The notes under the pieces were generated by a model. The model ran no database searches. It was not told the origin of the DNA and saw only the letters and a list, made by a program, of their open reading frames with translations. The position numbers and the translations under genes were made by a program. DNA of 64,000 bases. Origin: a virus. The stretch lies in IMG/VR virus record IMGVR_UViG_3300037518_000459. One strand, given 5' to 3'. This document shows positions 2,004-35,009 of this stretch, piece after piece. Within the stretch, counting starts at the first letter, position 1. The number at the start of each line of letters is the position of its first letter.

Positions 2004-2046
2004 GGTATAGGCTCCAGTTCAGGGGCGGGCGGTTTGAACTCGGCAC

Positions 2047-2145: not shown

Positions 2146-2180
2146 TTCTAGGCTCCGGTCTGTCAGGGACGCAGGACCAT

Positions 2181-2200
2181 ATAGCAGGGCCCGTGCCAAT
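2181..2200 (-). promoter_or_regulatory. sigma54-type -24/-12 promoter-like element (rc GATTGGCACGGGCCCTGCTATATG), leftward
   Basis: Matches TGGCACG-N4-nTGC with GG-to-GC spacing of 12; it lies upstream of the gene at 2047..2145 and its operon. Confidence 0.5.
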
Positions 2201-2270
2201 CCACGAAACGACAACGGGCGCCAAACCGCGGGCCCGGTCCGCCAATTCTGGCGAATCCGGGCCCTTGCGG

Positions 2271-2310
2271 TTTGCAACGCCGTTGCAAAATGCGGACGCA
2301 TTCCGCAACG
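2271..2310. promoter_or_regulatory. Dyad-symmetric upstream elements: TTGCAACGCCGTTGCAA and TTGCAAAATGCGGACGCATTCCGCAA
   Basis: Inverted repeats ~90-120 bp upstream of the 2181-2200 promoter, in an enhancer or operator-like position. Confidence 0.5.
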
Positions 2311-2314
2311 TCGA

Positions 2315-2668
2315 CTAGACCGGGACAGACTCCCCGGTCTGGGAATCGTAGATTGCCAGCTGGCCCGCCCGTCGTCCCGCTTCCAGGGCCGCGGCGCGAT
2401 CCTCGAAACCGCGCGAAACGTCCAGGAAATAGCGCCCGGACGCGGGATCCTTCCATCCGCCGAAGTACGCGCCATCGCGCGAAAGGGCGGGCCAGCGGGT
2501 CCGGATGAACTCGGAGAGTTCCGCTTCCGTGGGCTCCCGGTCGAACTCGGCGCCGCCCGCGTCCGATGCCAGAAACCGCGCGGGCGGGGTTTGGTAGTTC
2601 AGGGCCAGGGTAAAACCGCCATCCGCCCAAAGATCGGACGATGCGGGAATAACAACGTGCGCGCGCAA
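2315..2668 (-). CDS. Hypothetical protein, 117 aa, TTG start
   Basis: Protein-like C-terminus of ORF 2315..2875. The TTG start sits after the CCCCTAGACTGGAGCCTACC SAS, and the upstream ATG-initiated stretch has low GC3. Confidence 0.5.
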   Translation of the reverse strand: MRAHVVIPASSDLWADGGFTLALNYQTPPARFLASDAGGAEFDREPTEAELSEFIRTRWPALSRDGAYFGGWKDPASGRYFLDVSRGFEDRAAALEAGRRAGQLAIYDSQTGESVPV

Positions 2669-2741
2669 GGTAGGCTCCAGTCTAGGGGCGAAGCAAGCAA
2701 GGGCGATTGTAGCACGTTCCGGGCCCGTCAGGGAAAGCAAA

Positions 2742-2903
2742 CTATAGCCTAATCTCCTTTCCATCCGTCGAATCGGTCGGGCCTTTTGCGCGCAACCTAG
2801 CGCGCAATTTGCGAAGATCCCGGGACCATCGGGCCGCAAGGGAAAGGAGCCCGACCAGGACAAGGGCCATTGCAAACGCTAGCAGGATCAAGAATCCTTT
2901 CAT
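2742..2903 (-). CDS. Small membrane protein, 53 aa (MKGFLILLAFAMALVLVGLL...)
   Basis: Internal M of ORF 2742..2996, with a TM helix followed by a basic tail; ATGA overlap with the upstream gene. Confidence 0.5.
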   Translation of the reverse strand: MKGFLILLAFAMALVLVGLLSLAARWSRDLRKLRARLRAKGPTDSTDGKEIRL

Positions 2904-3064
2904 TCCAGGGCCCCGCTTTCCAGCAACGCGGCCGCTTGCCGACCGTACCGCCCGGGAAGGGACCAAACGATCCCGGACCGTATGAGTTCGCGCCACGCGT
3001 CCAGGACGTCCGCCGCGTCCGCTTCCGGATCTTCCACCAATTCGAGCGCTTCGATTGGTCCCAT
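2900..3064 (-). CDS. Hypothetical acidic protein, 54 aa
   Basis: Internal M of ORF 2900..3121 (MGPIEALELVEDPEA...), coupled by ATGA to the downstream gene. Confidence 0.4.
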   Translation of the reverse strand: MGPIEALELVEDPEADAADVLDAWRELIRSGIVWSLPGRYGRQAAALLESGALE

Positions 3065-3081
3065 TGCCAACCTACCCTTTC

Positions 3082-3792
3082 CTAGAAACGGTCCGCCGCG
3101 TTGTCGCGCCACCAAACCCATGTAAGGGCTTGGACGCGCGCGGCGGTCAAGCTAGGGGCCAGTTCCGGGAACGCGGCGCGAAGGGCCGCGGCCGCGTCAA
3201 CGTACGCGCGGGCCGCTTCGCGGTATCGTTTGTCGGTCAGTTTCAGGGCGGGCCCGCCCCCTGCGATCGCCCACGCGTGGCGGTCAATGCAAACCGCATC
3301 CGTTGCGCCCGCGGAAACGATCGACCGATAGAACGCGCGGACTTTCGGGCCCCCTAGCACGTCCAGGGGCGGCGCCCCGTCCAGGATCCGGGCCGCTTTC
3401 GCGCGGTTCCGACCGTATCCCGGTCCGGGAAGGATCGGGGCGCCTTGCTTCCACGCGTCCAGGATCGCGGGCGCCCATGCGGTTTGAACGTCCCAGGATA
3501 CTTGAGGGGAAAGGGCCGCAAGCGCCCCGGCCGTCGATTCGACGGACAGCCCGTAAGGGCGCCCGATCCCTGCGCAGAATCGGCGCGCGTTTTCGTACCA
3601 ATCCAGCCCGTCCCGGGCGCGGGCCGCGTCGTCCAGGGCGCGGCGCGCTACCAGTTCCACGCGCGCCGCGGCGGTTCGCGGTTCCAGGAACGGCGGGCGC
3701 GCCCGCGCGGGCGGTTCCGGATCGGCGGGCGCCGCGGGCCCGTTCGCCCAATCGGCGAGCCACCACTCATCAAGCGGGCGGTCAGGATTCAA
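3082..3792 (-). CDS. Hypothetical protein, 236 aa, TTG start
   Basis: ORF-track protein with ordinary composition. Its start is immediately after the CCCCCTGACCGGAGCCTAGCG SAS. Confidence 0.6.
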   Translation of the reverse strand: MNPDRPLDEWWLADWANGPAAPADPEPPARARPPFLEPRTAAARVELVARRALDDAARARDGLDWYENARRFCAGIGRPYGLSVESTAGALAALSPQVSWDVQTAWAPAILDAWKQGAPILPGPGYGRNRAKAARILDGAPPLDVLGGPKVRAFYRSIVSAGATDAVCIDRHAWAIAGGGPALKLTDKRYREAARAYVDAAAALRAAFPELAPSLTAARVQALTWVWWRDNAADRF

Positions 3793-3833
3793 CGCTAGGC
3801 TCCGGTCAGGGGGCGGGTTTCCGCCCCGGAGCG

Positions 3834-3869
3834 TAGCACGGGCCGTGCCAATCCAATAAATGCCAATCC
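3834..3869 (-). promoter_or_regulatory. sigma54-type -24/-12 promoter-like element (rc GATTGGCATTTATTGGATTGGCACGGCCCGTGCTACGCT), leftward
   Basis: TGGCACG-N4-GTGC with correct spacing, a duplicated GATTGGCA, directly upstream of the SAS of gene 3082..3792. Confidence 0.5.
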
Positions 3870-3899
3870 TGCGGAATCCTGCGGGATTCCTACCAGTTC

Positions 3900-4050
3900 A
3901 AGCAAGCGGCGCGCGTTGCAATTGGCAAACTGCGAATCGCAGAATGCGACCCGTCATTCTGCACGTGTCGGCGCGACACGGTGACCAGTTCCTGGCCGGT
4001 CGTGCATTTTGCACGTTTTGCAGATTTTGACAATCCTGCAAGCCAGCTGC
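3900..4050. promoter_or_regulatory. Cluster of dyad elements: TGCGAATCGCA, CAGAATGCGACCCGTCATTCTG, GTGTCGGCGCGACAC, GTGCATTTTGCAC, TTGCAG-N12-CTGCAA
   Basis: Several perfect inverted repeats 50-200 bp upstream of the 3834 promoter; the GCATTTTGC core recurs at three other sites. Confidence 0.5.
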
Positions 4051-4060
4051 CCGCGAGCGC

Positions 4061-4146
4061 GCGAGCTGCGAAACGCGAGCTGCACTTTTGCGAGCTGCAC
4101 TTTCCGAGCTGCACTTTCCGAGCTGCACTTTAGCAGCTGCACTTTC
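4061..4146. repeat. Six tandem ~14-bp iteron-like repeats (C)GAGCTGCACTTTn(n)
   Basis: Direct reading of the non-coding 383-bp gap 3793-4175. Confidence 0.8.
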
Positions 4147-4149
4147 TGC

Positions 4150-4178
4150 GCACCCCCTCTTTAGGCACCCCCTCTTTA
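4150..4178. repeat. Two copies of GCACCCCCTCTTTA overlapping the stop of gene 4176..5531
   Basis: Direct reading. Confidence 0.7.
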
Positions 4179-5531
4179 CGGCGTCCCCTTGAGGCACAGA
4201 ACGTGGACCACGGCCTCGTTGCCGTACGCCTTGGTCTGCAGCACGAACAGGCGCTCGCCGGCCGCGTCCCACGTCATGCCATTGAAGTAGCGCCGGCGGC
4301 AGACCGGGTCGAAGCCGTCGAGCGGCGACTGCCACAGCCAGTCCGGCATGATGGCTTGGACGGGCTGCACCTCCCACGGCTGGCGGATCCCCATCGCGAC
4401 TTCGCCCAGCTGGTCCGGGTCGTAGAAGTAGAGCATCGGCGTGTACGGCTCCGAGTGCCAGCCGCGGAACGCGTCGCAGCCGATCCCGTCGTCGTAGTGG
4501 TTGGGCCCGAGCCCCTTGGTCCACCCGAAGATCAGCACGCTCAGACCGTTCCGGTCGTAGGGCCACGCCATATTCCACCACCAGTCGCCCTCGGCGTTCT
4601 TGTAGCCCTCGGACCAGCCGAGGGCCCCCGTGCCAGGATAGCCGAGGATCATGCGCGCGCCGAAGTCCGAGCCCGGCGCCGCACTCAGGTCAGGCTTGAA
4701 GACCTGGAGCGTGGGGCCGAAGAGCCCTTCGAACGCGCCGGCGATCCGCTGGCGCGCGCACCCGATGACCGCGTCGGGGTCGTACTTGCCGGCCCACGCC
4801 GGCGGCACGCGCAGCAAGCGCTGGTGCGTCTTGTTCGCGTGGTGCGCGTTCTTCGTGGGGACGTTCACGCCCGCGGGGCCCGCGCGCCACGGCCCGTCCT
4901 TCCGCTGCGTGTCGAGCGACGCGTCGGTCGCAGTGAGCCCCTCGTTATCCCGCGCGACCACGTTGTAGAACTCCCAGTACGCGATCAGGAGGTCCAACCC
5001 CAGGGTCGCCATGCCCCCGAACGTCTTCGCCGGATCGCACAGGGGCGCCGTCAGCTGCGACTCCTGGAACCGCGGGCCAACCGCCTGGGACACGAGGCAC
5101 TTGGTCGGTTGGTTCTTCACCGCACTAAGGGGCAGCCCGGGGTCCGCGGGCACGGTGATCTCGGTGATGCCGCCCAGGGAGCGGATCAGCAGGCGCCCGT
5201 TCGCCTCGTCGTAGTCGAGGTCGCTGTTGTCGAACTGGCGCTGCCCAGTGCCGAAGATCGCGAGCGACGGAAGGCGGAACGTGTGGCGCCACTGGAAGTC
5301 CGAGTACGACAGGCGCCCCGCGCCGGGCGCGTCGGGGATGTTGGCCCAGACGGGGTTCACCGAGAGCACCGCGACCCAATCGCTCCAGATGCCGGCGACG
5401 ACCCAGGCGACGGACCACCAGTGCTCGTCGTACAGGCCGGGGTTCGCGAAGACGTGCTCCAGGTCGCTCCACTTGCCGGCGCCACTCACGGCTTCGGCGA
5501 CCCGGGCTAGGGACAGGGTAGTATTGGACAA
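4176..5531 (-). CDS. Hypothetical protein, 451 aa, Trp/Tyr-rich, possibly an enzyme
   Basis: Long ORF with protein-like composition; no motif recognised. Confidence 0.6.
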   Translation of the reverse strand: MSNTTLSLARVAEAVSGAGKWSDLEHVFANPGLYDEHWWSVAWVVAGIWSDWVAVLSVNPVWANIPDAPGAGRLSYSDFQWRHTFRLPSLAIFGTGQRQFDNSDLDYDEANGRLLIRSLGGITEITVPADPGLPLSAVKNQPTKCLVSQAVGPRFQESQLTAPLCDPAKTFGGMATLGLDLLIAYWEFYNVVARDNEGLTATDASLDTQRKDGPWRAGPAGVNVPTKNAHHANKTHQRLLRVPPAWAGKYDPDAVIGCARQRIAGAFEGLFGPTLQVFKPDLSAAPGSDFGARMILGYPGTGALGWSEGYKNAEGDWWWNMAWPYDRNGLSVLIFGWTKGLGPNHYDDGIGCDAFRGWHSEPYTPMLYFYDPDQLGEVAMGIRQPWEVQPVQAIMPDWLWQSPLDGFDPVCRRRYFNGMTWDAAGERLFVLQTKAYGNEAVVHVLCLKGTP

Positions 5532-8419: not shown

Positions 8420-8487
8420 CACTCCACCTCCCCGAACAGCGCACGCATCATGCGCAGCAGCGCCCACGTTCCGTTGCTCCAGGTCAT
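8416..8487 (-). CDS. Micro-ORF, 23 aa (MTWSNGTWALLRMMRALFGEVEW), possible coupling element
   Basis: Strong AAGGAGG SD. Its ATG overlaps the TGA of the AAA+ gene and its TGA overlaps the GTG of the downstream gene. Confidence 0.25.
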   Translation of the reverse strand: MTWSNGTWALLRMMRALFGEVEW

Positions 8488-9695
8488 GCTTCCTCCTTTG
8501 CGGCGACCAGCCGCTCTTGCGCTTCGGCCATCGAGCATCCGAGCATCTCCAATGCGAAGGCCGCGGCAGCCAAGTCATTCGACACCTCGGGGTAGAACCT
8601 CGCGTAAAGCCGTCTGAGCTGATCGGCATCCGGCTTGGCGAGGTGGATCCGAACGTCCACGCGCCCCGGGCGCACGAGCGCCGGATCCAGCTTCTCGGGG
8701 TGATTCGTCGTCATCAGGACGATGTGTCCCTCGCTGGACGTCACGCCGTCGAGGGCGTTGAGGAGTCCGCTGAAGGTCACCTTGTCCTTGCTCTTCTTCT
8801 TGCGCCCCTCGAACAGCGCGTCGACGTCCTCCATGAGGATGATCTTGTGCCCCGCCCGGGACATCAGGCTCATCAAGCCAGCGTCGCCCAGCTGATCGCG
8901 GCCGAAGTTGATCACGGCGAGGTCCATCTCCAGCTCCGTGGCTAGGGCGATCGCGAGGCTCGTCTTCCCATTGCCCGGCGGGCCGTCGAGGAGGATCCCC
9001 AGGCGCCACGGGATGCCACGCTCCCGGTACCAGTTCCGCGAGTCGAGGAACTGGCGGCACCGCCCGAGCAGCTCTTCCTTGAGGCCAGCCTTGAGCACCA
9101 CGCTGCCGATGGGCCGCGGCTCCGCGCGCTGCAGGTGGCACCAGTTCCCGTAATCGTCGCCGGAGTAGATGTCGGGCCCCGAGCCGAACCGGGCAAGGGC
9201 CTTGTCCCGCGCCGTGTCCAGGAAGGAGCGCACCGCTTCCTTGCTCCACCGCGCCGCGTTGACGTAGTACGTTTCCCTCTGCAGGAGGGAATCGAACCCG
9301 TGTTCGCCGCCCTTGGCGTTGTCGTCCCGTTGGCGATGCACGAAGATCCAGTGTCCCTCGTACCGGAAGAGGTGGCGCCCGAGCCCCGGAACCAGCCGGA
9401 TGGGCATGCGGCGCTCCCCCTCGCGCAGGTGATCCAGCCGCGTGGTGGCACTGAGGCGCCGCGCTCGCCGCGCCGCCCCGCTGCCGGCGAGCCACCGGCT
9501 GATCCAGTCGTACAGGGGATCCGGCTGCCGCACCTCCACCTCCAACGCGATCAGGTTGAGGGTCCTGTCCCACAAGCGCTTCGGCAACTCGCGTGCTTGG
9601 TGCGCGAGGTACGACAACGTGACCACGAACAGACCGCCTGTGGCGAGCTGGTTGGTGGCGGCCTGCTCTTTGACCCACGCGATGAGGTGCTCCAT
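8484..9695 (-). CDS. AAA+ ATPase, BCS1-like family, 403 aa
   Basis: Walker A GPPGNGKT and Walker B ILMEDVD in an AAA+ core. The start is taken at the internal MEHLIAW, since the upstream 95 aa look like Arg-rich frame artefact. Confidence 0.75.
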   Translation of the reverse strand: MEHLIAWVKEQAATNQLATGGLFVVTLSYLAHQARELPKRLWDRTLNLIALEVEVRQPDPLYDWISRWLAGSGAARRARRLSATTRLDHLREGERRMPIRLVPGLGRHLFRYEGHWIFVHRQRDDNAKGGEHGFDSLLQRETYYVNAARWSKEAVRSFLDTARDKALARFGSGPDIYSGDDYGNWCHLQRAEPRPIGSVVLKAGLKEELLGRCRQFLDSRNWYRERGIPWRLGILLDGPPGNGKTSLAIALATELEMDLAVINFGRDQLGDAGLMSLMSRAGHKIILMEDVDALFEGRKKKSKDKVTFSGLLNALDGVTSSEGHIVLMTTNHPEKLDPALVRPGRVDVRIHLAKPDADQLRRLYARFYPEVSNDLAAAAFALEMLGCSMAEAQERLVAAKEEA

Positions 9696-9937
9696 CACCA
9701 CGCCGCCAGCGCGAAGATGTGGGCCGCGGCAACGCCGAGCAGAGTGACCACGCCAGCGAGAATGCCGAGCATCACCCAGTCGACGCGGTCCATGAACTTC
9801 GTCCGATGCTGCCACTCGGCGCGCACCGACCAGCGCCAGCTGGCGAACGGCCGGCACCGGCTGCACGGCGCGGTGCTCGTCATCAGGTAGTTGGCACCGG
9901 GCTCGTGCCGCGTTCCGCCGCACCACTTGCAGGACAT
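9695..9937 (-). CDS. Zinc-ribbon plus C-terminal TM protein, 80 aa
   Basis: MSCKWCGG...CSRC, followed by a hydrophobic C-terminus; SD AGGAGGAGG. Confidence 0.55.
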   Translation of the reverse strand: MSCKWCGGTRHEPGANYLMTSTAPCSRCRPFASWRWSVRAEWQHRTKFMDRVDWVMLGILAGVVTLLGVAAAHIFALAAW

Positions 9938-10431
9938 CACTGGACCTCCTCCTGGGGCATGAGCAGCGCCCGCTCCCCATTGGATCCCAGGATCACGACC
10001 GGCTGCCCGGGCTCCGATGGCAGGTACACCCGAACCGTGCTCCCGTTCTTCGGGAACGCGTCGAGCGCGTCGATCAACAGCTGCGGCTCCACGCGGAAGG
10101 GGATCCCTTGGGCCTCGGCCCGCGGACCAAAGTCGGGCCACGCCTTGAGCCGCTGGGCGCCGGCCACGCGCTCACCCTGTTGCACGACGTGCCCGTTGGT
10201 TCCGACCTCGGCCCCGTGCGTGGCCTTCAGCTTCGCGGGGTCGAAGCCCGCGACGACCTCCCCTTCATGCGCCGCCGGCACCGATACGACGACGAATCCA
10301 TCCGACGCCTCCGCGCGTCCGCGCCCGATCGCGATCACCGGTGGCAGGATCCCGTTCTTCTTGGCCCGCGCGGCGAGGCGCTTGGCCACCCGCACGAAGT
10401 CCTTGGAGAGTTGGACTACCATCTCACTCAT
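9937..10431 (-). CDS. Hypothetical protein, 164 aa
   Basis: ORF-track protein with ordinary composition. Confidence 0.55.
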   Translation of the reverse strand: MSEMVVQLSKDFVRVAKRLAARAKKNGILPPVIAIGRGRAEASDGFVVVSVPAAHEGEVVAGFDPAKLKATHGAEVGTNGHVVQQGERVAGAQRLKAWPDFGPRAEAQGIPFRVEPQLLIDALDAFPKNGSTVRVYLPSEPGQPVVILGSNGERALLMPQEEVQ

Positions 10432-13017: not shown

Positions 13018-13566
13018 CTAGTCCGACAAGGGCCTGTCGCCGGAGAACGCGTAGACCCGCGCCCGGGCGAAGTCCGAGATGAAGAACCGCTCGACGTTGA
13101 CCCCATAGGGACGCGACAGGTCCGCGTGGCACAGCTTAGTCAGGTGGGACGAGGCCCCATCCCCCGCTTGGGCTTCTAGCAGGTCCCGGAATCTGTGCTC
13201 CGCGATGTGGCGCGCGAGCGCCGCGAGCGAAATGTCCCCGATTGTGGCGTCGTGGTCCCAGTTCGCGGTCAGGGCCTGAACCACGTTGCGTATTGTGTAG
13301 ACGACCACCCCGGCGACCACCACTGACACGCCGTCCTTCGTGGTCAGCCGCTGCGCCGGCAGGTTCAGGGTCTGGCGCGCGGTCGCGATGACCTCCACCT
13401 CGGTGACCAGTGGCCACCACCAGAAGAGCCCGGGACGGATCTCACTGATGACGGAGCCGCGCCGGAACTTCACGCCACCGTGCGTGGTGCGGCAGATGCC
13501 GAGCCGTGGCACCAGCGACAGCAGCGCCTGGAAAATCTGACCGAGCCAACCGAAGACTTCCACCAT
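13018..13566 (-). CDS. SPFH/band-7 (stomatin/prohibitin-like) domain protein, 182 aa
   Basis: LPAQRLTTKDGVSVVVAGVVVYTI region is typical of SPFH, with an N-terminal hydrophobic anchor. Confidence 0.6.
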   Translation of the reverse strand: MVEVFGWLGQIFQALLSLVPRLGICRTTHGGVKFRRGSVISEIRPGLFWWWPLVTEVEVIATARQTLNLPAQRLTTKDGVSVVVAGVVVYTIRNVVQALTANWDHDATIGDISLAALARHIAEHRFRDLLEAQAGDGASSHLTKLCHADLSRPYGVNVERFFISDFARARVYAFSGDRPLSD

Positions 13567-13573
13567 GAGGGAC

Positions 13574-13756
13574 CTACCGCTTTCCTTGCGTGATGGAGGA
13601 CTCATGGCCCTTGAGGGCCATGAGTGAGACGAAGCCGACGACGAACACGAGAGACCGCGCCCACCACGACATGCCATCGGCGAACACGGAGCCGAACATC
13701 AGGCCCAGGGAGAGAATCAGTTCACCGACCGCGCTTGGGCGCCAGTAGGTCTTCAT
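13574..13756 (-). CDS. Small membrane protein, 60 aa
   Basis: Internal M of ORF 13574..14011, SD GGAAGG, two TM segments. Confidence 0.5.
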   Translation of the reverse strand: MKTYWRPSAVGELILSLGLMFGSVFADGMSWWARSLVFVVGFVSLMALKGHESSITQGKR

Positions 13757-16868: not shown

Positions 16869-18119
16869 TTACCCCTTCACGCACACGACTTGCTTGAGCA
16901 CCGTCGCCGGCTCGACAAGGTCCACCTGCGCGGCCATGACCGCGTCGATGTCCTTGTACGCGCGCGGGGACTCGTCGAGGACGGTTTCGTCCTTTCGGCA
17001 GTGCACGCCGTGCGTGTCGGCGGCGTGCTGCTCCTTGGTGATCGTGCGCCGCGCCGCCGTCCGGGACATGACCCGGCCGGCGCCGTGGGAGCACGAATGG
17101 AAGGACTCAGGATTCCCGAGCCCGCGAACGATGAAGGACTTCGCGCCCATCGAGCCGGGGATGATGCCCAGGTCGCCCTCGCGAGCGCGGACCGCGCCCT
17201 TGCGCGTGACGATCACGTTCTCCCCGAAGTGGTTCTCGATCGCGGCGTAGTTGTGGTGGCAGTGGATCAGGTCAGCCGCGCGCGGCGCCCGGTCCTCGCC
17301 CAGCGTCGCGTTGATCGCGCGCAGCGCCTGCCGCATCATCAGCAGGCGGTTCTCCCACGCGTAACGCTGGCACCAGTCGAGCGCGAACAGGTAGTCGTCG
17401 TACGCCTTCTCGCCGCGCGGGAAGAACGACAGGTCCTTGTTCGGGAGCTTCGAGTGCCACGCCGCGCACTTCTCCTGAGCGCGCGCGATGAAGTAGCGCG
17501 CGATCCGGTTCCCGATGCCGCGCGAGCCGGAGTGCAGCATCAGCCACACCGTATCGGTCCCGCGCTCCAGGCAGACTTCGATGAAGTGATTCCCGCCGCC
17601 CAGCGTGCCGAGCATGTTCCACGCGTGCGTGTGGGGCCTCGTGCGTCCTTGGGCGAATACGCCCCGATCGCGCTCCATCAGCTCATTGAGACCGGCGCGG
17701 AACTCGCGGTCGTAGACCTCCTTTACCTCTTCCAGCGGGCGCAGCTTCCATCCGCCTTCGTCCGTGTCGATGCGGCCGTGGTCCGAGCGCCCGTGCGGAA
17801 CGGCCACCTCGATCGCCGCGCGCAAGCGGTCTAGCCACCCGACGATCTCCGGCGCGCGCCAGCCCGTCGGGATCGCGAGCATGCCGCACCCGATGTCCAC
17901 CCCGACCGCTGCCGGGATGACGGCGTTCTTCGTCGCGATGACGGAGCCCACGGTGGCACCGAGCCCCCAGTGGGCGTCCGGCATCAGCGCGACGTGCTTG
18001 TGGATGAACGGGAGCCCCGCGATGTCGAGGGCCTGGGCCAGGGTCGCGTCGTCCATCGGAACCGCGCCGTTGCCGTCCCAGACCTTGACCGGCCGAGGGC
18101 TCGTGGAGAAAACCCTCAC
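16869..18119 (-). CDS. rtcB: RtcB RNA ligase (RNA-splicing ligase family), 416 aa, GTG start
   Basis: PVKVW...MPDAHWG...GGGNHFIE...HNYA...HSCSHGAGR motifs are diagnostic of RtcB; SD GGAGGTG. Confidence 0.9.
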   Translation of the reverse strand: MRVFSTSPRPVKVWDGNGAVPMDDATLAQALDIAGLPFIHKHVALMPDAHWGLGATVGSVIATKNAVIPAAVGVDIGCGMLAIPTGWRAPEIVGWLDRLRAAIEVAVPHGRSDHGRIDTDEGGWKLRPLEEVKEVYDREFRAGLNELMERDRGVFAQGRTRPHTHAWNMLGTLGGGNHFIEVCLERGTDTVWLMLHSGSRGIGNRIARYFIARAQEKCAAWHSKLPNKDLSFFPRGEKAYDDYLFALDWCQRYAWENRLLMMRQALRAINATLGEDRAPRAADLIHCHHNYAAIENHFGENVIVTRKGAVRAREGDLGIIPGSMGAKSFIVRGLGNPESFHSCSHGAGRVMSRTAARRTITKEQHAADTHGVHCRKDETVLDESPRAYKDIDAVMAAQVDLVEPATVLKQVVCVKG

Positions 18120-18463
18120 GACCGCACCTCCAGGTGCTTGGACAGCTCCACCATCTTGTCGAGGCTCAGGTGCGGGCCGAAGATCGCGTGCCCGTCGTAC
18201 GTGAACTGCTCCCGCGCCTCGTGCTCCTCGGCAGTGAGGACCGCCTTGAGTGCTGTCTGCACGATCTCGGCGTCCGTCATGTACCGGGACAAGCGCCACT
18301 TGCGGGACGTCCAGCTCCCATCGACGCCGTCTCTCGTGGGATCGATCGCGTTGAATCGGACCTGGAGCCACACGGACGAAGGGCCATCGGTACCGACGAC
18401 GAAGAGCCAGTTCTTGTACCGAACCCGGGTGAGAAGAGCGGCGGCCCGCTCGCGGAGGCTCAT
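18116..18463 (-). CDS. Hypothetical protein, 115 aa
   Basis: ORF track, SD GGGAGG; overlaps the RtcB start. Confidence 0.55.
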   Translation of the reverse strand: MSLRERAAALLTRVRYKNWLFVVGTDGPSSVWLQVRFNAIDPTRDGVDGSWTSRKWRLSRYMTDAEIVQTALKAVLTAEEHEAREQFTYDGHAIFGPHLSLDKMVELSKHLEVRS

Positions 18464-18771
18464 TTCTTCTGCCTCCCGCGTCCGAACAGCCCGCGGATCG
18501 CGCCGACCGCGCGCTGCAGGATCCCCTGCTGCTCCTGGCGCGGCGCGGCCTTCCCGCCCCGCAGCTCTTCCAGCTTGGCCTCGATGGCCTCGGCACGCTG
18601 CCGGGCCCGGAAGCCGCGCTTCGCGCCGCGCTCGTGCATACGCTCCAGGCGCTTCAGCACACGGCGCTGCTTCCGGTTGAACCCGGCGAAGGGGCCCTTC
18701 ACGTACCGGCCCCCCGTCTTCAGGTACTCCGTGACCAGCTTGTCGTTGGCCTTCGTCTCGTCCCAGCTCAT
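18460..18771 (-). CDS. Basic hypothetical protein, 103 aa
   Basis: Internal M (MSWDETK) with SD GAGGAGGGGG. Confidence 0.5.
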   Translation of the reverse strand: MSWDETKANDKLVTEYLKTGGRYVKGPFAGFNRKQRRVLKRLERMHERGAKRGFRARQRAEAIEAKLEELRGGKAAPRQEQQGILQRAVGAIRGLFGRGRQKK

Positions 18772-19265: not shown

Positions 19266-19290
19266 CTGCACTTCCCGTGCCAATCTACTA
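19266..19290 (-). promoter_or_regulatory. sigma54-type -24/-12 promoter-like element (rc GATTGGCACGGGAAGTGCAGCT), leftward
   Basis: TGGCACG-N4-GTGC, the same architecture as at 2181, 3834 and 31655. Confidence 0.45.
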
Positions 19291-27839: not shown

Positions 27840-28709
27840 CTACTTCTCGAAGACGGACTTTCCGGTGGGAGCCTCGTCGTCGTCGTTCTCGTGCTCGCCG
27901 ATCTCGCGCTCGCCGGCACTGAACTCGGCCAGGATCTTGCGGCCCATCTTGTAGGCCGGGTGCTCCTGGTCGGTGATCAGGGAGGCGACCACGTTGGGGT
28001 TCCCGTCCTCGTCGGTCACGGCCGGCGTCAGGACGTAGTTCCAGAAGTCGCCCTTGGCGCTCGACTCGAAGCGCGACGTCAGGCGGATCTGGTGCGCGAA
28101 CAGCGGCGCCGCCTCGGACAGCGGCATCTCGGCCCCGGCCACCGACACCAGCGTCGACTCGACCAGGGTCGCCCACTCGGACCACGGCCCGAGCTGCTTG
28201 CTCTTGAACGGGAACACGACGACGTCGATCACGCTGCCGCCCGGCTTGTCCAGCACGAGCGCCGGCACGTAGTTCGTCTCGATGATCTCGTTCTCGGGTT
28301 CCGACGGGTCGAGGATCTTGCCGAAGACCTTCTTGCCGCCCGTGAGCTTCAGGATCGTCGGATCCGTCGGGGCGAAGCGCCCGCGGAAGCCGCCGCCGTT
28401 GTCCCGGTTGCGGTACTTCACGAACCACTTCTGCCGCTCGATCGGCACGATGGTGATCCCGTCTCCCTCGCGCAGCTCGTACACGCGCCGCGTGCCCTTG
28501 TTCAGGGCCATGCCGGGCTCGGCGCCGGCGATGTACTTCTGGTGACCCTTCTGGACCTGCGGGCTGTTCGTCGCGAGGAGCCCCATGATCGGGATGACGC
28601 GGTCCTCGCCGAGGCCCTTGGTCCCGGCGCCGGCGTCCGTTCCGAAATTGACACCGAGCGCGACGGCGGTGGTCCCCTTCGTCGCGACGGCCTTTCCGTT
28701 CTTCGCCAT
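27840..28709 (-). CDS. Hypothetical protein, 289 aa
   Basis: ORF track; possibly a recombination or annealing partner of the adjacent coiled-coil protein, but this is speculative. Confidence 0.55.
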   Translation of the reverse strand: MAKNGKAVATKGTTAVALGVNFGTDAGAGTKGLGEDRVIPIMGLLATNSPQVQKGHQKYIAGAEPGMALNKGTRRVYELREGDGITIVPIERQKWFVKYRNRDNGGGFRGRFAPTDPTILKLTGGKKVFGKILDPSEPENEIIETNYVPALVLDKPGGSVIDVVVFPFKSKQLGPWSEWATLVESTLVSVAGAEMPLSEAAPLFAHQIRLTSRFESSAKGDFWNYVLTPAVTDEDGNPNVVASLITDQEHPAYKMGRKILAEFSAGEREIGEHENDDDEAPTGKSVFEK

Positions 28710-28762
28710 TCGATTCTTCCTTCTCCAGCGGGATGGTTGATGTAGCCCCGCGCGGGGTCCCG

Positions 28763-29323
28763 CTAACCCTTGCGCGTGACCTTCAATTGCCGGCGCCAGT
28801 AGGCCCCGAACGTTTCCTTCAGCTCCGGGATCTGGACTCCCCGCTTGAGCAGCTGCTTCAGGATCGACTTGAGGGTGGAAGAGTGGATCATCTCGTCGCG
28901 AGAGACCAGGAGTCCCCGTGCGCGCAGCTCCGTCACCAGCTCGTCGGCCTTGGCGTCCTCCTGCAGGGAAAACTCGACCATCACGACGTTCCGGATGGAG
29001 CCGCCCTGCTTCAACTGCCGCATGATCTGGAGGGCGCGCGCCTTGTTGGCGGGATCGTTCCCCAGGCTGTGCTTCAGCTCTTCCTTGACCTGGACCCGAA
29101 GACCGCCGGCCGTCGTGAAGTCCTTGGTCCGCAGCTCGTCCATCAGCTCCGGACCGCGCTGCTCCTGGACCTCCGCCAGCTCCGCCTTGGCTGTCTTCAG
29201 CTCCTCCTCGATCTGCAGCACACGCTCCTCGCGGGCCTGCATCTCGGTGATCAGCTCGGACAGCTCCCCGAGGCGGGACGTGTCGACGCGGGGGGCGTCG
29301 GCACCGAAGTCGAACTCCTTCAC
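28763..29323 (-). CDS. Coiled-coil hypothetical protein, 186 aa, GTG start
   Basis: SD AGGAGG; the upstream ATG-initiated stretch has low GC3. Confidence 0.5.
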   Translation of the reverse strand: MKEFDFGADAPRVDTSRLGELSELITEMQAREERVLQIEEELKTAKAELAEVQEQRGPELMDELRTKDFTTAGGLRVQVKEELKHSLGNDPANKARALQIMRQLKQGGSIRNVVMVEFSLQEDAKADELVTELRARGLLVSRDEMIHSSTLKSILKQLLKRGVQIPELKETFGAYWRRQLKVTRKG

Positions 29324-29513
29324 GTGGACCTCCTGGTTCGCGTGTGAATACAACCCTATCACGGTCGCGAGGGGGTTGTCAACTCCACCACCGGTTGCCC
29401 TCTGTACCTACCTACCTCCCCGGGCATCGGCTGAGGGAGCCCGCACGGGATCCCCACCAGCTCGGGCGGGAAGTAATTGCGCAGGGGCAGAAAGTCGATC
29501 TGCTCTTCAACGT

Positions 29514-31010: not shown

Positions 31011-31474
31011 CTCCGGACCCCCATGCGGTTCTTCTTCGTCTCGGTGGCGCGGCGCAGCGCGACGAGTGCCTCGGAAATCTGGTCAATCGGTTGCTCCACG
31101 CACACGCTGTGCACGGTTCCGTCACCCTCGATGTCGCTCCTACTGCGGTCCGTCCACTCGGCGAAGACGACGTGCAGCAACTCGTGCACCAAGGTCGTCT
31201 CCATGTCGTACCACAACCGAGGTTCCTCGGTTCGATGGTCCCGGGGATCCAAGAGGTGAACGGTAGCAGCGCGCCGAGAAGCCAGCCACGTAGCGGCGCC
31301 CTGGATGTGGTCCTGCGGAAGATCGGGGGCCCTGGTGATCTTCAGGTTGATCTTCCATGCCTGGAGCCCAAGGCGCGGGACCCAGTAGTCCAGGAGCTGC
31401 TCCAGCTCCTCACCGGTGAGGTAGACGTTGATCGGATCGTGCTCGGGCGGGTCGAAGTGCTGGATCAGAGCCAA
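31007..31474 (-). CDS. HExxH motif (putative zinc metallopeptidase-like) protein, 155 aa, TTG start
   Basis: LVHELLHVVF; SD AGGAGG. Confidence 0.5.
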   Translation of the reverse strand: MALIQHFDPPEHDPINVYLTGEELEQLLDYWVPRLGLQAWKINLKITRAPDLPQDHIQGAATWLASRRAATVHLLDPRDHRTEEPRLWYDMETTLVHELLHVVFAEWTDRSRSDIEGDGTVHSVCVEQPIDQISEALVALRRATETKKNRMGVRS

Positions 31475-31566
31475 CCGGGTCCTCCTGGACTAGGGTTGCC
31501 TGCGCCGGGCGGGGGCGGGGCGGATGCCCCCGAACCCGGCTGGAGAGCCGAGTCTAGCACCGCCCC

Positions 31567-31607
31567 TGCGCGGAATGCAACCCCCTAGTTCGCATTTTGC
31601 GCGCGTC
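31567..31607. promoter_or_regulatory. Dyad upstream element GCGCGGAATGC-N11-GCATTTTGCGCGC
   Basis: Lies 50-90 bp upstream of the 31655 promoter and shares CGCATTTTGCG (reverse complement of CGCAAAATGCG at 2283) and GGAATGC cores. Confidence 0.45.
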
Positions 31608-31654
31608 GGTGTTCCGGAGCCCAGGTAGATGCCAAGATTGGCAATGGTTCTCGT

Positions 31655-31676
31655 TGGCACGGGTCGTGCTATACTC
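31655..31676 (+). promoter_or_regulatory. sigma54-type -24/-12 promoter-like element TTGGCACGGGTCGTGCTATACT, rightward, preceded by GATTGGCA
   Basis: TGGCACG-N4-GTGC with GG/GC spacing of 12; it lies ~27 nt upstream of the GAAGGAGG-GTG start of the plus-strand cassette. Confidence 0.5.
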
Positions 31677-31702
31677 CTGGCCAGCCCCGAAGGAGGTTCA
31701 CC

Positions 31703-31972
31703 GTGAACAGATTCTGGAAGGTGTACCAGACCAAGCTGACCCAGGCCGTGCGGCGCGACCCGGAGTCCTACGCGCTGACGCGTGACGAGACCCCGGAAGC
31801 GTACGCGGAGAAGGTGGCCCTGTCCTTCTCGGACAGGACGTCGATCGGGAGCCCGCGAGCCGTGCGGGCCATCAACATCCACGGGAGCGCGGCGTTCCGG
31901 GCCACGGCGCGGCACTTCGGGGTTCCGTGCTCCTACGACTCGCTGGGCCCCCTGGCCGCGGAAGGGAGCTGA
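31703..31972 (+). CDS. Hypothetical protein, 89 aa, GTG start; first gene of the plus-strand cassette
   Basis: Strong SD GAAGGAGG 6 nt upstream. Confidence 0.6.
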   Translation: MNRFWKVYQTKLTQAVRRDPESYALTRDETPEAYAEKVALSFSDRTSIGSPRAVRAINIHGSAAFRATARHFGVPCSYDSLGPLAAEGS

Positions 31973-31975
31973 AAC

Positions 31976-32137
31976 ATGGACAAGGAGTGCATTGCCTGCG
32001 CGGATCCCTCGAACCAACTGAAGCACGGGCTGTGCCCCCGATGCCGAGCCATCCAGCGTACCGCCGCGGACCGCCGCCGGCGCCGTGACAGTCGCCGTAC
32101 CGGACACCGGTTCAAGCGCCGGGAGGGGATCCGATGA
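31976..32137 (+). CDS. Small zinc-ribbon basic protein, 53 aa (CIAC...CPRC)
   Basis: Not in the track because it is under 60 aa; SD GGGAG, tightly packed between the flanking genes. Confidence 0.45.
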   Translation: MDKECIACADPSNQLKHGLCPRCRAIQRTAADRRRRRDSRRTGHRFKRREGIR

Positions 32138-32730
32138 CACGGGGGCGAATGGATTCGACGGACCCGCAGCGGGTGGTGCCGCGTAGGGATCCCGGACGCC
32201 GGTTCGATTCCGGCCGCCTCCACCAGCCTTCGCACGACCCCGGCGCCGGCTTCCGGCAAACCTTCTGCGGTCCCGCGGCGTTGTCCGCTCTGACCGGCAT
32301 ACCCGCGGAGACCGTGGCGCGACGCATCGAGCACCTCACCGGCCCGGCTGAACACTTGGCCGGCATGCACCACTGGGAGATGACCGCGGCCCTCAAGCAC
32401 TTTGGATTGTCGCACAAGAGCATCGCCTACGGTCGCTTGGAGGATCGCCCAAAGCGGCGGCGCGGCTGGTGGGCCCAGCTAGTCACGCGGGATTGCCTGA
32501 AGGGACAGTCCGAGGTGGCTTGGGTCGGGCGTCCGACGTTGGCTCGCTGGGCCCTTGAACGCGACGCCGAGACCTACAACAGCCCCTGCGTCCTGGTCAT
32601 CAGCAATCACTTCGTGGTCGTCCAGGGTGGCGACATCGCGGACAGCGTCCACGGGCTGATGCCCTTGGACGAAAGTCCCTACCGCCGTCGGCGCGTCCAT
32701 CGCGCCACCGTCATCGGGCGCTCGGATTGA
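32134..32730 (+). CDS. Peptidase C39-like (papain-fold) domain protein, 198 aa
   Basis: The QTFCGPAALSAL and SNHFVVV (Cys...His) arrangement is typical of C39-like domains; ATGA overlap; SD GGGAGGGG. Confidence 0.5.
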   Translation: MTRGRMDSTDPQRVVPRRDPGRRFDSGRLHQPSHDPGAGFRQTFCGPAALSALTGIPAETVARRIEHLTGPAEHLAGMHHWEMTAALKHFGLSHKSIAYGRLEDRPKRRRGWWAQLVTRDCLKGQSEVAWVGRPTLARWALERDAETYNSPCVLVISNHFVVVQGGDIADSVHGLMPLDESPYRRRRVHRATVIGRSD

Positions 32731-32862
32731 CGTGGATAGGCCCAGGGGGCAAGCCGAGCGCCAGGTCGCCCTGGAACCACGCCGGGGCGATGCCCTTCGT
32801 GTCGTCCACGAACTTGCCGGCCTGGACGCCGTGCGCGAACAGCTCGGGCGTGACGAGGTAGA

Positions 32863-33348
32863 TCACGCTTGCCATTTCCCACCAGCTGGGTCAATGCCAT
32901 CAAGGCTCGTAACGTAATCTGCGATACGGCGCAGCTCTTCCGGAGTCGCATCGCATTTGATACGGTTCGCACGCCACGAGATGACGGCAACATTTCCAGG
33001 GACGTAGCCGCACGAGTTGTTAATGCGATCGAGCGTCGGAGCGTTGTCGTTCATTCGATGACGTGATGCTTGCAGCTCCAGACCGAGAACTGGACAATGC
33101 GTCGGGATGACAATGTCAGACTCAGTGATTGTGCAGGGGATACCACTCTTCCGAGCCCGTGAGAGGGCGCTCAAAAGAAGCCGCTTCTCGGGCTTTGCTT
33201 TTCGGTAGCGCGCCATATATTCTCGCGCCCGTTTGCGTTCGGGATCTGCACGTTCGCGCGACTCCCGATTAACCGCGATCTTGCATGATCTGCAGACAGC
33301 ATCCCGACCATAACCACTACGATCCTCGCCGCATCGCGTGCAGATCAT
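32863..33348 (-). CDS. HNH homing-type endonuclease, 161 aa
   Basis: An N-terminal zinc-ribbon-like Cys pair (MICTRCGE...CRSC), a second Cys pair (CPVLG, CGYVPGN) and a DRINNSCGY...N HNH-like core. Local GC is about 55%, against about 68% for the window. Confidence 0.65.
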   Translation of the reverse strand: MICTRCGEDRSGYGRDAVCRSCKIAVNRESRERADPERKRAREYMARYRKAKPEKRLLLSALSRARKSGIPCTITESDIVIPTHCPVLGLELQASRHRMNDNAPTLDRINNSCGYVPGNVAVISWRANRIKCDATPEELRRIADYVTSLDGIDPAGGKWQA

Positions 33349-35009
33349 GCGCGCCACTTCCCAGAATACATTGTGACGATCGCCCGCTTTCCGTTCGGGT
33401 ACGTGATCACGTGTGAATGGGACCAGCTGCCCGGCCCGGCGGTGTAGCCCAAGCGCAGCTTGGAGCTGGTGCCGGCGACGTACAGGCCCTCGAAGATCGC
33501 GGCACTGTGCGTGTGCCCCGTGTTGGCGCGACGCCCCATGCGCGCGAGGGCCTGCGGGGAACCCTTCCCGCCGTTCGGGCCCAGGTGCCCGTGCATCCCA
33601 CACTCGATGTCCCCACAGATGACGTGGGACTCGTCCTCTCGCAGGAACCGAACGCGCTCCGGCGCACCATAGCGGCGCAGCGCCCACTCCAGGAGATGGA
33701 ACCGATCGTCGCGGGCGGCCAGCGCCTCGTACTGCGCGAGCTGGGCCCGCAGGAAGAACACCGCGTTCAACGGGTCCTCGCGGTAATCGCTTTCGCGCAG
33801 CCAGCGGCTCATCGCTTGGTCGTGGTTCGAGTCGACGACCACGGTACGACACCACGGACGGTCGATCTCCATCAGGACGCGGGCCGCCTCCTCCACCTCG
33901 TCCTCAACGCGGTCCTTGCCCTCGACGTGCCGGCGGAACATCCGGTGCGGGTCCTTCCGGTCGTGGTGGTTCCGCGCGTAGAAGTCGAGCAGGTCGTGGA
34001 CGTGCTGCTCCTTGGGTCGGAGCACGTCGAGCATGTTGCCTTCTTCAGGTGGACGAGATACCTCGACCAAAAATCCCGGAGGTGTATTCGGACCCGCCCT
34101 ATGCTCGCAGTAGTTGCCCCAGCCGAGCCGTCGCACTCCGGGGTCAAGGTGCGCCGTGTGGAAGTCGCCCCAGGTAATCGCCTCCACTCGGCACCCGGTC
34201 CTGAGCTTGTCGCCGGCGACCCTCACGTCGAGGTCCTGGATGCAGCCCTCCCGATCCGCGATCAGCTGACGGCACCACCAGCGCCCCTCGTCGTCGATCT
34301 CAACGAGCAGCGCCCCGTACACGTGGTGAAACTCGGCCTTCTGCCCGGCCTTCTTCTGAATGTAGTTGCGCAGCGTCACGGTGCCCGTCGTGTAGTTCAT
34401 CTTCGCCGACTCGTTCGCCAACGACGGCACGGACTGCAGCGCGACCTTCACGTGCGGGAAGATCCCGCTCTTCCTCCTCGTGTAGTTGTCGAGGCTGGAC
34501 AGGGGATTGGCCGCGGTCGGCTGGATGTTCATCTCGCCGCACCAGACGAGGCCGGGCGCCAGCTGAACACGCTCGTCCACCACATAGGGCAGGATCTCGG
34601 GGGCGTACCACAACTCGTCCTGGTGACCGGCCGTTCCCCTCTTCACCGCGAGTTGCCCGTACGCGTTCTTGTTGTAGGCGAAGGTCGAGACCCAGATGTC
34701 GGCCCGATAGTGCCGGGCCAGGGTCTTCAGGCTTCGCCAGACCCCTTCGTGGATGAGCGTGTTGTTCTGGGCGCAGGTGAGAATGAGGCGGCGCACCGCG
34801 CCCTTGAGCGGCAGCGGCTCTTTGCGGGCCGCAGTGTCCTCGACCCGTCCGCCGGCGAGGGGCTTGATGTTCAGCTCCCCGTCCGCTTGGAGGCGGTCGC
34901 GATGGTAGCGTACCGCCTTGGGAGTGATCTCCAATTCACGGGCAGTCTTGCGCACGTTCCCGCCGTACTCGACGAGAAGCTGCGCGACCCGGTCGCGCAT
35001 GGACTGCAT
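33345..35009 (-). CDS. N-terminal HTH fused to a calcineurin-like metallophosphoesterase (SbcD/Mre11-like?) domain, 554 aa
   Basis: N-terminus VRKTARELEITPKAVRYHR is HTH-like; phosphoesterase motifs GDFHTAH, DSNHD, MHGH and GHTH; SD GGAGG. Confidence 0.55.
   Translation of the reverse strand: MQSMRDRVAQLLVEYGGNVRKTARELEITPKAVRYHRDRLQADGELNIKPLAGGRVEDTAARKEPLPLKGAVRRLILTCAQNNTLIHEGVWRSLKTLARHYRADIWVSTFAYNKNAYGQLAVKRGTAGHQDELWYAPEILPYVVDERVQLAPGLVWCGEMNIQPTAANPLSSLDNYTRRKSGIFPHVKVALQSVPSLANESAKMNYTTGTVTLRNYIQKKAGQKAEFHHVYGALLVEIDDEGRWWCRQLIADREGCIQDLDVRVAGDKLRTGCRVEAITWGDFHTAHLDPGVRRLGWGNYCEHRAGPNTPPGFLVEVSRPPEEGNMLDVLRPKEQHVHDLLDFYARNHHDRKDPHRMFRRHVEGKDRVEDEVEEAARVLMEIDRPWCRTVVVDSNHDQAMSRWLRESDYREDPLNAVFFLRAQLAQYEALAARDDRFHLLEWALRRYGAPERVRFLREDESHVICGDIECGMHGHLGPNGGKGSPQALARMGRRANTGHTHSAAIFEGLYVAGTSSKLRLGYTAGPGSWSHSHVITYPNGKRAIVTMYSGKWRA

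Follow-up and report, generated by a model that had tools for sequence, protein, structure and literature searches.

The window analysed here is the whole 64,000-nucleotide (nt) stretch of IMG/VR record IMGVR_UViG_3300037518_000459, a 64-kb tailed-phage genome of high GC content (~67%), and this work concerns a plus-strand gene cassette and its immediate neighbours at 31567-33348. The cassette forms an operon whose promoter is of the sigma54 type and apparently of the activator type; its genes are two small lineage-specific protein genes, one 85-nt RNA gene and one gene for a peptidase-like protein of C39-like fold. By its sequence, the RNA gene (32141-32225) is a predicted transfer-messenger RNA (tmRNA) stripped down to its tRNA-like domain (TLD). 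We consider it moderately probable that the whole represents a sigma54-driven accessory operon supplying an alanine-accepting tmRNA mimic, which would compete with the trans-translation of the host. The first-pass annotation of this stretch, which had described three coupled protein genes, is partly confirmed: its observations were largely right, but the RNA gene, the key feature of the locus, was missed. As a consequence, the likely biology of the locus shifts towards translation and ribosome rescue.

The RNA gene and its relatives

In a search against Rfam, the segment matched the tmRNA family RF00023 with 69.9 bits (gathering score 47, expectation value (E) 3.7e-25) and was preferred over tRNA in clan competition. 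The alignment covered only model positions 1 to ~24 and ~338 to 374, with 27 nt replacing the ~314 nt of the coding and pseudoknot region. The RNA gene and its parts are listed below.

32141-32225, plus strand: TLD-only tmRNA lacking a coding sequence (CDS), 85 nt (Rfam RF00023, ARAGORN)
32141-32147 / 32215-32221, plus strand: acceptor stem, 7/7 pairs, GGGGGCG / CGCCUCC; G3·U70 is 32143·32219
32159-32165 / 32186-32194, plus strand: P2 stem with a tandem G·A at its base
32169-32182, plus strand: capping hairpin
32198-32214, plus strand: T-arm, with a 5-bp T-stem and a UUCGAUU loop
32222 and 32223-32225, plus strand: discriminator A73 and encoded CCA

According to the Rfam alignment, the D-arm is replaced by the D-analog loop GGAUUCGAC and the anticodon arm is absent. 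The alanine identity set, consisting of G3·U70, A73 and the encoded CCA, is complete. The canonical parts of a tmRNA, namely the resume codon, the tag open reading frame (ORF) with its degron and the pseudoknots PK1-PK4, are absent from the TLD, and only 27 nt lie between the two P2 strands. The codon-position GC signal was likewise absent from 32141-32225 when GC content at third codon positions (GC3) was analysed. The tmRNA call made by ARAGORN also ends at 32225. However, the 343-nt tmRNA with a tag of 30 amino acids (aa) proposed by this program was rejected because its 5′ end falls within the well-supported 89-aa gene; the 30-aa "tag" is an artefact that spans the end of the 53-aa gene and the 5′ strand of the TLD.

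Canonical bacterial tmRNAs (RF00023) have 5′ and 3′ ends nearly identical to the TLD of the window. Its 21-nt 5′ end is shared exactly with full-length tmRNAs of many phyla, including Eisenbacteria, Krumholzibacteriota, Poribacteria, Acidobacteria, Nitrospirae and others. No exact match to the 3′ half was found among those same full-length tmRNAs, the difference being one compensated T-stem pair.

Only three homologs of the 198-aa peptidase-like protein were found in a collection of 5.8 billion proteins, and their contigs supplied the relatives of the locus. The closest ones, L001 and L002 (peptidase 60% identical), carry the same 85-nt element with an Rfam score of 52 bits, located at 208-292 in L002. 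The TLDs of the window and L002 are 93% identical, compared with 67% for the peptidase CDS and 64% for the next gene. Four of their six differences make up two compensatory pairs (C6-G76 to U-A and A22-U50 to G-C), and the remaining two fall on loop positions that are variable across the class described below. Judged from these alignments, conservation at the locus is highest in the TLD, which has changed in a compensatory manner. In L318 and L320 (peptidase 37% identical), a 74-nt TLD of 51 bits lies between the upstream stop codon and the Shine-Dalgarno (SD) site of the peptidase gene, while contig L317 (33% identical) begins within the 3′ end of a TLD, 65 nt before the peptidase gene. The TLD therefore stands directly upstream of a peptidase-like gene, on the same strand, in four lineages, and it is a separate gene in the relatives. 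The conserved position of the peptidase gene right after the TLD suggests co-regulation and possibly a common pathway. A lineage-specific TLD pattern gave no match in metagenome contigs.

Two further observations concern the frames in and around the TLD. Its loop at 32166-32186 (plus strand) contains a short frame, GCA GCG GGU GGU GCC GCG UAG, which reads AAGGAA followed by a stop and is the same in L002. The frame opens with GCA, the commonest resume codon of tmRNAs, and ends in Ala-Ala. It probably arose by chance, because it is absent from L318 and a closed loop of 27 nt seems too small to be threaded through the mRNA channel. In addition, each of three lineages has an upstream ORF that stops at the 5′ edge of its TLD. 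In the window, its TGA (32135-32137) is followed by 3 nt before the TLD starts at 32141; in L002, the TGA of the ORF at 87-215 lies within TLD nt 6-8; and in L318, the TAG of the ORF at 4553-4906 abuts the TLD at 4907-4980. Hence, a cut by RNase P would leave messages that end at or before the stop codon, which are potential non-stop substrates.

The element was then sought across the viral contigs of IMG/VR with a pattern for which 0 chance matches are expected. A first scan used a gapped pattern that can be satisfied only by short forms and returned at least 118 viral contigs (loci L010-L127). A second scan left the acceptor stem unconstrained and returned at least 82 further loci (L233-L314). 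Taken together, the two scans place mini-tmRNAs of the TLD-only form, 63-95 nt long, in at least ~200 contigs of IMG/VR, such as L011:3031-3110, L014:7631-7712, L025:4080-4146 and L049:5218-5298. Among the matches listed from the first scan there were 91 distinct sequences of 63-92 nt. All six elements sampled exceeded the Rfam gathering score, under the simple label "tmRNA", and ARAGORN made no call for the mini-tmRNAs at the 60 loci checked.

Because MAFFT misaligned the 5′ strands, base pairs of the class were counted by anchored coordinates. In the 91 listed elements, the free pairs of the T-stem were 100% canonical with 4-5 pair types each, P2 was 94% paired in register versus 29-52% when shifted, and the G·A tandem was present in 82-90. 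The second scan provided, among the matches listed, 60 elements with a valid T-stem and P2, and 55 of the 60 had a 7/7 acceptor stem. Every one of these (55/55) carried G1-C72, G2-C71, G3·U70 and A73, and pair 4 covaried. Many members combine a P2 stem with a UAAAR internal loop and a hairpin of the CCGCAUGCGG type. Of the first 60 first-scan loci checked, about a quarter have tRNA genes in the vicinity, and several elements sit inside a tRNA array. The TLD of the window thus belongs to what seems a large and essentially undescribed viral class.

CDS-less tmRNAs are known from jakobid mitochondria, two plastids and one phage, DS6A (2025 tmRNA database paper, PMC11915505), and DS6A was the only phage named for a published TLD-only tmRNA in the literature searched. 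The DS6A element (tmRNA Website tmID 11587; Mao et al. 2009, via PMC4131195; PMC11915505) is listed as "TLD only" in PMC4131195, which states that a similar RNA inhibits the host tmRNA in E. coli, perhaps by titrating SmpB. We located the DS6A element at 28478-28560, with 43.2 bits and with the same Rfam positions and architecture. Both RNAs have a length of ~83-85 nt, an acceptor stem, a D-analog, a T-arm, a short capped P2 and G3·U70, and neither has a tag frame; DS6A also encodes an RtcB-like ligase (gp76), as the window does RtcB. In contrast, the element of the window is the better tmRNA match (69.9 vs 43.2 bits) and its CCA is encoded. It lies in an opposite-strand operon and in an in-frame protein fusion, whereas the DS6A element is intergenic (gp33/gp34). 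The genome of the window is an unrelated high-GC, siphophage-like one with sigma54-type promoters, which are not expected in a mycobacteriophage. The window hence offers a second and better-preserved phage TLD-only tmRNA outside the DS6A lineage, whose new features are the in-frame fusion with a protein gene, the recurrent C39-like neighbour and the sigma54 control.

The CDS-less tmRNAs of jakobid mitochondria and plastids (Rfam mt-tmRNA; PMC11915505) also consist of the tRNA-like domain only, and are thought to act with SmpB in a tagless manner. However, each of them is the only tmRNA of its organelle and is presumed to rescue ribosomes, whereas the TLD of the window probably competes with a full-length host tmRNA. 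Tagless tmRNAs are an unsolved puzzle, for which this locus provides a candidate protein partner and a natural fusion allele that would give either RNA or protein.

The fused reading frame, the peptidase-like protein and the promoters

The other features of the cassette and its 3′ neighbours are listed below.

31570-31603, plus strand: candidate upstream element of activator type, made up of ATGCAAC and the palindrome CGCATTTTGCG (31591-31601), 54-85 nt before the −24 element
31655-31670, plus strand: sigma54-type promoter TGGCACgggtcgTGCT (−24 TGGCAC / −12 TGC), from a motif scan
31690-31696, plus strand: SD site AAGGAGG of the 89-aa gene, read from the sequence, 6 nt before GTG 31703
31703-31972, plus strand: gene for an 89-aa protein, GTG start, ORFan, GC3 0.92
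31976-32137, plus strand: 53-aa gene, with a zinc-ribbon-like N-terminus (CxxC-N11-CxxC) and an Arg-rich tail (isoelectric point (pI) 11.5), GC3 0.78
32121-32128, plus strand: SD-like site GGGAGGGG inside the end of the 53-aa gene, 7 nt before ATG 32134
32134-32730, plus strand: 198-aa ORF, GC3 0.82
32225-32226, plus strand: fusion junction, a 43-nt deletion relative to L002 (alignment)
32711-32875, minus strand: 54-aa gene converging on the cassette, GC3 0.89, with a 20-nt 3′ overlap with the peptidase ORF
32863-33348, minus strand: putative free-standing HNH/EndoVII-type endonuclease gene, between the A1-like and the 54-aa genes

The spacing described by the first-pass annotation, with 3 nt between the 89-aa and 53-aa genes and an ATGA overlap of the 53-aa stop with the start of the 198-aa ORF, was borne out by the ORF list and GC3, and its strong SD site was seen in the sequence. 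Three ORFs do exist, but the first ~90 nt of the third "gene" are the RNA gene (32141-32225), and the ATGA overlap is not its native start. In the relatives L002, L003 and L318, the peptidase starts with MLLIQPPTHD, 3′ of the RNA gene position. In L002, the TLD is followed by 26 nt that include GAAGGAG and then by the ATG of MLLIQPPTHDEG. Through the 43-nt deletion, the peptidase-like gene of the window has lost the spacer, its SD site (GAAGGAG), its start codon ATG and its ~5 initial codons, and CUCCACCA is joined directly to the codons for QPSHDPG. This junction was identical, with 0 mismatches, in five independent assemblies. What keeps the fused frame open is a CGA in the window at the place of a TGA in L002, a compensated change of acceptor pair 6, and the fused ORF begins with MTRGRMDSTDPQR. 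In L002, the same TGA ends a 42-aa ORF with a GC3 of 0.91, whose GTG is preceded by a counterpart of the GGGAGGGG site. The start at the ATGA overlap is, as these alignments indicate, a derived fusion.

Between the end of the CCA and the catalytic Cys there is no in-frame ATG, GTG or TTG. An active peptidase can thus be obtained only from ATG 32134 or ATG 32149, both of which read through the RNA gene. Translation through the TLD and processing of the RNA would therefore be mutually exclusive for each transcript, which would give RNA or peptidase but not both. In smpB-ssrA of Carsonella (PMC4131195) a protein frame overlaps a tmRNA-type gene in a similar way, so that maturation of the RNA must cut the mRNA. 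In that case the 3′ end of smpB overlaps ssrA and a non-stop message results, whereas in the window the 5′ end of the peptidase frame spans the whole RNA gene and processing would remove the start codon. L002, with the stop codon of its 42-aa ORF inside the TLD, resembles Carsonella.

The structure of the 198-aa protein was modelled with AlphaFold2 (AF2), giving a predicted local distance difference test score (pLDDT) of 87.7. Residues 1-30, encoded by the RNA gene, are apparently disordered (pLDDT 50-65). Residues ~31-198 form a stand-alone C39/papain-like Cys-His domain (C45, H159, D170) with a core pLDDT >90, and GC3 is high only from ~32215. With Foldseek against PDB, the top 10 matches were all C39 double-glycine peptidase domains (6mpz, 5xe8, 3k8u; ComA, PCAT1) with a probability of ~1.0; the best was 6mpz_B (E 1.6e-4), ComA and PCAT1 came next, and staphopains and deubiquitinase-type folds followed. 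Among viral structure models, uncharacterised phage proteins including PhiJL001 Gp45 were matched. An exhaustive profile search gathered 815 family members, of which 93 had E<=1e-10, and Cys45 and His159 were the only invariant columns in a 60-member alignment. No Pfam match was obtained for the window protein or for any of the 60 family members, and a profile-versus-PDB sequence search did not find a C39 chain. The protein is basic (pI 9.5) and has conserved Arg clusters.

Like peptidase C39 of ComA, PCAT1 and LahT, the protein has a papain-like fold with invariant Cys and His. Unlike C39, it has no profile match, stands alone and carries its Gln at Cys-3 rather than Cys-6, and its family is an uncurated phage family that includes PhiJL001 Gp45. 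According to the model, the 198-aa protein is thus C39-like in fold, yet lies outside the curated C39 families. The C39-like assignment of the first-pass annotation accordingly stands for the fold and the invariant residues, but not for sequence-profile membership, transporter or substrate. No ABC transporter or double-glycine substrate was present at the locus, where the peptidase-like gene is surrounded by small ORFans, an A1-like gene and a helicase, and no GG-leader motif was seen in the 89-aa or 53-aa proteins.

The cassette's own sigma54-type promoter, also claimed in the first pass, held up well. The site TGGCACgggtcGTGCT at 31655-31670 has the −24 GG and −12 GC at the fixed spacing (TGGCAC-N5-TTGCW). 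The window contains 4 copies of the motif TGGCAC-N6-TGCW where 0.17 are expected, and 0/100 shuffles reached 4. The four sites, at 2183-2198 (minus), 3835-3850 (minus), 19267-19282 (minus) and 31655-31670 (plus), are each co-oriented with the local genes. The cassette promoter is kept in L003 as TGGCACgaagccTGCA and in L318 with GG-N10-GC retained, and no sigma70-type site was found in 31300-33500. By alignment, CGCA-N3-TGCR palindromes lie upstream of all four window sites and of the L003 cassette promoter, and also in L318. The looser form YGCANNNTGCR is found 11 times in the window (5.9 expected), and 5/11 precede the four sigma54-type sites by 50-165 nt. L318 shows the same promoter design in a divergent intergenic region, with sites at 4258-4273 (minus) and 4499-4514 (plus). 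Sigma54-type promoters, as predicted from the motif, are hence a well-supported genome-wide feature of this phage group. No sigma54-activator domain was recognised among the window ORFs scanned, which implies that the activator would have to come from the host; the AAA+ protein encoded at 8484-9980 was considered and rejected as it is BCS1-like. As a separate observation, a stretch of ~2 kb at 2001-4176 has a lower GC content (0.636 at 2001-3000) and no ORF passing the GC3 filter. It contains two of the sigma54-type sites and several palindromes, and may be a regulatory or early region.

Proposed function and competing explanations

In the mechanism we propose, host RNase P would cut the transcript at G32141, and 3′ trimming to the encoded CCA would free the mini-tmRNA. 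Alanyl-tRNA synthetase (AlaRS) would charge it, as is expected from the intact G3·U70/A73 identity set, and the charged RNA would then bind host SmpB and EF-Tu. It would enter ribosomes stalled on broken mRNAs in rivalry with the full-length tmRNA of the host. Having neither a resume codon nor a tag frame, it would block or short-circuit trans-translation. The stalled chains would escape the degradation tag and the host tmRNA-SmpB would be out-competed. The phage would thereby protect its own proteins and keep its supply of ribosomes while mRNAs are being cut. If the large viral class holds up, interference with trans-translation, or a tag-free use of it, would be a common phage strategy rather than a curiosity.

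Several points weigh against this proposal. Minimum free energy (MFE) folding of the single TLD sequence was no better than that of shuffles (z -1.2). It is the covariance model and the comparative data that support the structure. The 5′ half of the TLD fits tmRNAs of many phyla and points to no single host. L003, a fairly close relative (peptidase 47% identical), and L315/L316 keep the peptidase but have no TLD, which makes the TLD dispensable. Expression, processing, charging and SmpB binding of the mini-tmRNA are predictions from sequence. In the window, moreover, translation and processing should interfere with each other, so that the yield of either the RNA or the peptidase may be low. 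Lastly, Hudson et al. reported that a TLD-like RNA inhibits without any need for chargeability, so that ribosome entry is a putative mode of action.

The finding of Hudson et al. favours a pure decoy, in which the RNA would sequester SmpB (or AlaRS/EF-Tu) off the ribosome and charging and ribosome entry would be irrelevant. The SmpB-contacting features (GGAUUCGAC, the tandem G·A and the T-loop) are kept, as such a decoy would have it. We nevertheless regard it as an unlikely explanation, although it is the strongest of the alternatives. G1-C72, G2-C71, G3·U70 and A73 were present in all 55 elements without having been imposed, and neighbouring pairs covary, which is unexpected if charging is irrelevant. 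Conservation of the alanine identity set speaks for a role of charging, and thus favours ribosome entry over a pure SmpB sponge.

Another explanation assigns the peptidase a part in the same process. The alanyl-TLD would take over the nascent chain from stalled ribosomes, and the C39-like enzyme would act next, either on the peptidyl-Ala-TLD, whose ester it would hydrolyse, or on SmpB or a different host rescue factor, which it would cleave. The pair would then serve as a private tag-free rescue system or a rescue hijack, and a sigma54 activator responsive to RNA damage would induce it along with RtcB. It is in keeping with this that the adjacency of TLD and peptidase extends over four lineages whose peptidases are only 33-60% identical, that the catalytic Cys and His are invariant, and that the protein is basic with conserved Arg clusters. 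The RtcB RNA ligase gene at 16869-18596 (minus strand; PF01139, E 2e-121) lies downstream of the sigma54-type site at 19282, which bears the same upstream palindromes as the cassette promoter; its product has an N-terminal extension of ~180 aa without a family match. In E. coli, rtcBA is sigma54/RtcR-dependent and tmRNA is the most frequent ligation target of RtcB (PMC9650030). The window resembles this regulon in having a −24/−12 promoter with a candidate upstream activator-type site before the RtcB gene and in its tmRNA link. It differs in being phage-borne and in using the same promoter type before the TLD cassette and two other loci. Together with the RtcB-like ligase of DS6A, this suggests a possible RNA-damage-responsive phage regulon of TLD cassette and RtcB, drawn from two genomes and the literature. 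Such a regulatory tie to RtcB RNA repair through sigma54 promoters would be unusual for a phage.

On the other side, no C39-like peptidase at a convincing score was found near the mini-tmRNAs in the 118 loci searched from the first scan, and the TLD was absent in 60/61 distant peptidase loci. The pairing is thus confined to the phage group of the window, since generic elements come without the peptidase and distant peptidases without the TLD. L003 and L315 have a peptidase gene but no TLD. The adjacency may reflect synteny inherited within one phage group. RtcB was found in 0/200 flanking regions of mini-tmRNAs, and the evidence for a connection to it is therefore confined to the window, DS6A and the literature; the enzymatic activity is predicted. 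It is consequently doubtful, more so than the decoy, that the TLD and the C39-like enzyme form an unrecognised two-component system for stalled ribosomes, co-regulated with RtcB, within a large class of alanine-accepting TLD-only RNAs.

The tRNA-like fold might instead be a processing or regulatory signal, that is, an RNase P site or structural element that punctuates the transcript of the operon and sets the peptidase level, with the freed RNA having no function. The upstream ORFs ending at the TLD edge in three lineages would suit such a signal, as would the fact that processing in the window must destroy the sole translatable peptidase message. However, a signal of this type would not need the tmRNA-specific D-analog, the G·A tandem or the alanine identity set, and most class members are away from this peptidase-like gene, while many sit in tRNA arrays. 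We consider it improbable. It is even harder to believe that the RNA gene is a relic, i.e. a decayed captured host ssrA or an attachment-site (att) fragment left behind by integration into a tmRNA gene, functionless today, in a cassette of three protein genes: integration often targets tmRNA genes, and phages may contain pieces of these genes (PMC9004378, PMC4131195), but an att fragment holds only the 3′ part of the gene while here both halves are joined as a complete folded TLD, the TLD is the most conserved part of the locus with compensatory changes, no integrase turned up among the ORFs scanned, and at least ~200 viral loci have the same compact architecture.

Small genes, the HNH insertion and other cargo

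The credible genes of the window are all on the minus strand except for the cassette, whose ORFs are the sole credible plus-strand genes of the 64 kb in the GC3 screen, in agreement with the first-pass annotation. Genes identified in the window include the terminase small and large subunits, portal, tape-measure and tail proteins, a T5 A1-like "DNA transfer" protein, SNF2 and Dda-like helicases, primase, DNA polymerase and the RtcB RNA ligase. Neither an integrase nor SmpB turned up among the ORFs scanned. Cassette DNA and proteins had no match in 50,697 annotated phage genomes, and protein-pattern scans found no further cassette relatives in metagenome and viral contigs.

The 89-aa protein matched only itself among 5.8 billion proteins and had no family match in Pfam, NCBIfam, PADLOC or PHROG. 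The 53-aa protein likewise gave only a self-match in the protein database search, although a homolog of its C-terminus is visible where L002 begins. Its reading as a zinc ribbon is backed by the CxxC-N11-CxxC pattern and the basic tail, while family support is weak (DZR_2 in the Pfam scan, E 0.029). Apart from this weak match, Pfam, NCBIfam and PADLOC scans of the 89-aa, 53-aa and 198-aa proteins returned no defence, anti-defence or toxin family. The suggestion of a defence, anti-defence or toxin-processing system, for which a transporter and a double-glycine substrate are also missing from the locus, was thus not upheld.

The locus had also been proposed to be a moron, with the provision that conservation and synteny of the cassette in all relatives would speak against it. 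This is what the neighbourhood comparison found for the peptidase-like gene, which is conserved and syntenic in all lineages compared (the window, L001/L002, L003, L317 and L318); only the small upstream genes vary, and the 89-aa and 53-aa genes are lineage-specific. The moron reading is accordingly not supported. In the TLD-less relative L003 (2866-4180, plus strand), the upstream cassette genes are others, namely five small ORFs, several of them CxxC-rich. The slot ahead of the peptidase gene hence seems to be a variable one for small zinc-ribbon-like proteins.

On the 3′ side, homologs of the 54-aa gene adjoin the 3′ end of the peptidase gene in L001/L002 and L003. The HNH gene matched phrog_3322 (E 1e-34), phrog_1035 (E 2.5e-21) and an HNH PHROG (1e-8), and had no match in Pfam or NCBIfam. 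Its GC3 is 0.556, compared with ~0.87 in its neighbours; the genes neighbouring the cassette range from 0.83 to 0.96. The HNH gene is missing at this junction in L001 and L003, and the A1-like gene of L001 is followed directly by the small gene. The first-pass view of it as a low-GC foreign insertion was well founded: as judged from composition and synteny, it is a mobile insertion unrelated to the cassette. The insertion duplicates the C-terminus of the A1-like protein (GGKWQA versus GGKWRA, each followed by a stop) together with the overlapping start of the 54-aa gene, at 32863-32880 and 33345-33365 (minus strand), which would preserve translational coupling on both sides of it. Other unusual cargo of the window includes a BCS1-like AAA+ ATPase (BCS1_N + AAA) at 8484-9980 (minus strand), an SPFH/Band 7 protein at 13018-13677 (minus strand) and Pam3 gp33/gp34-like proteins encoded at 27840-29362 (minus strand).

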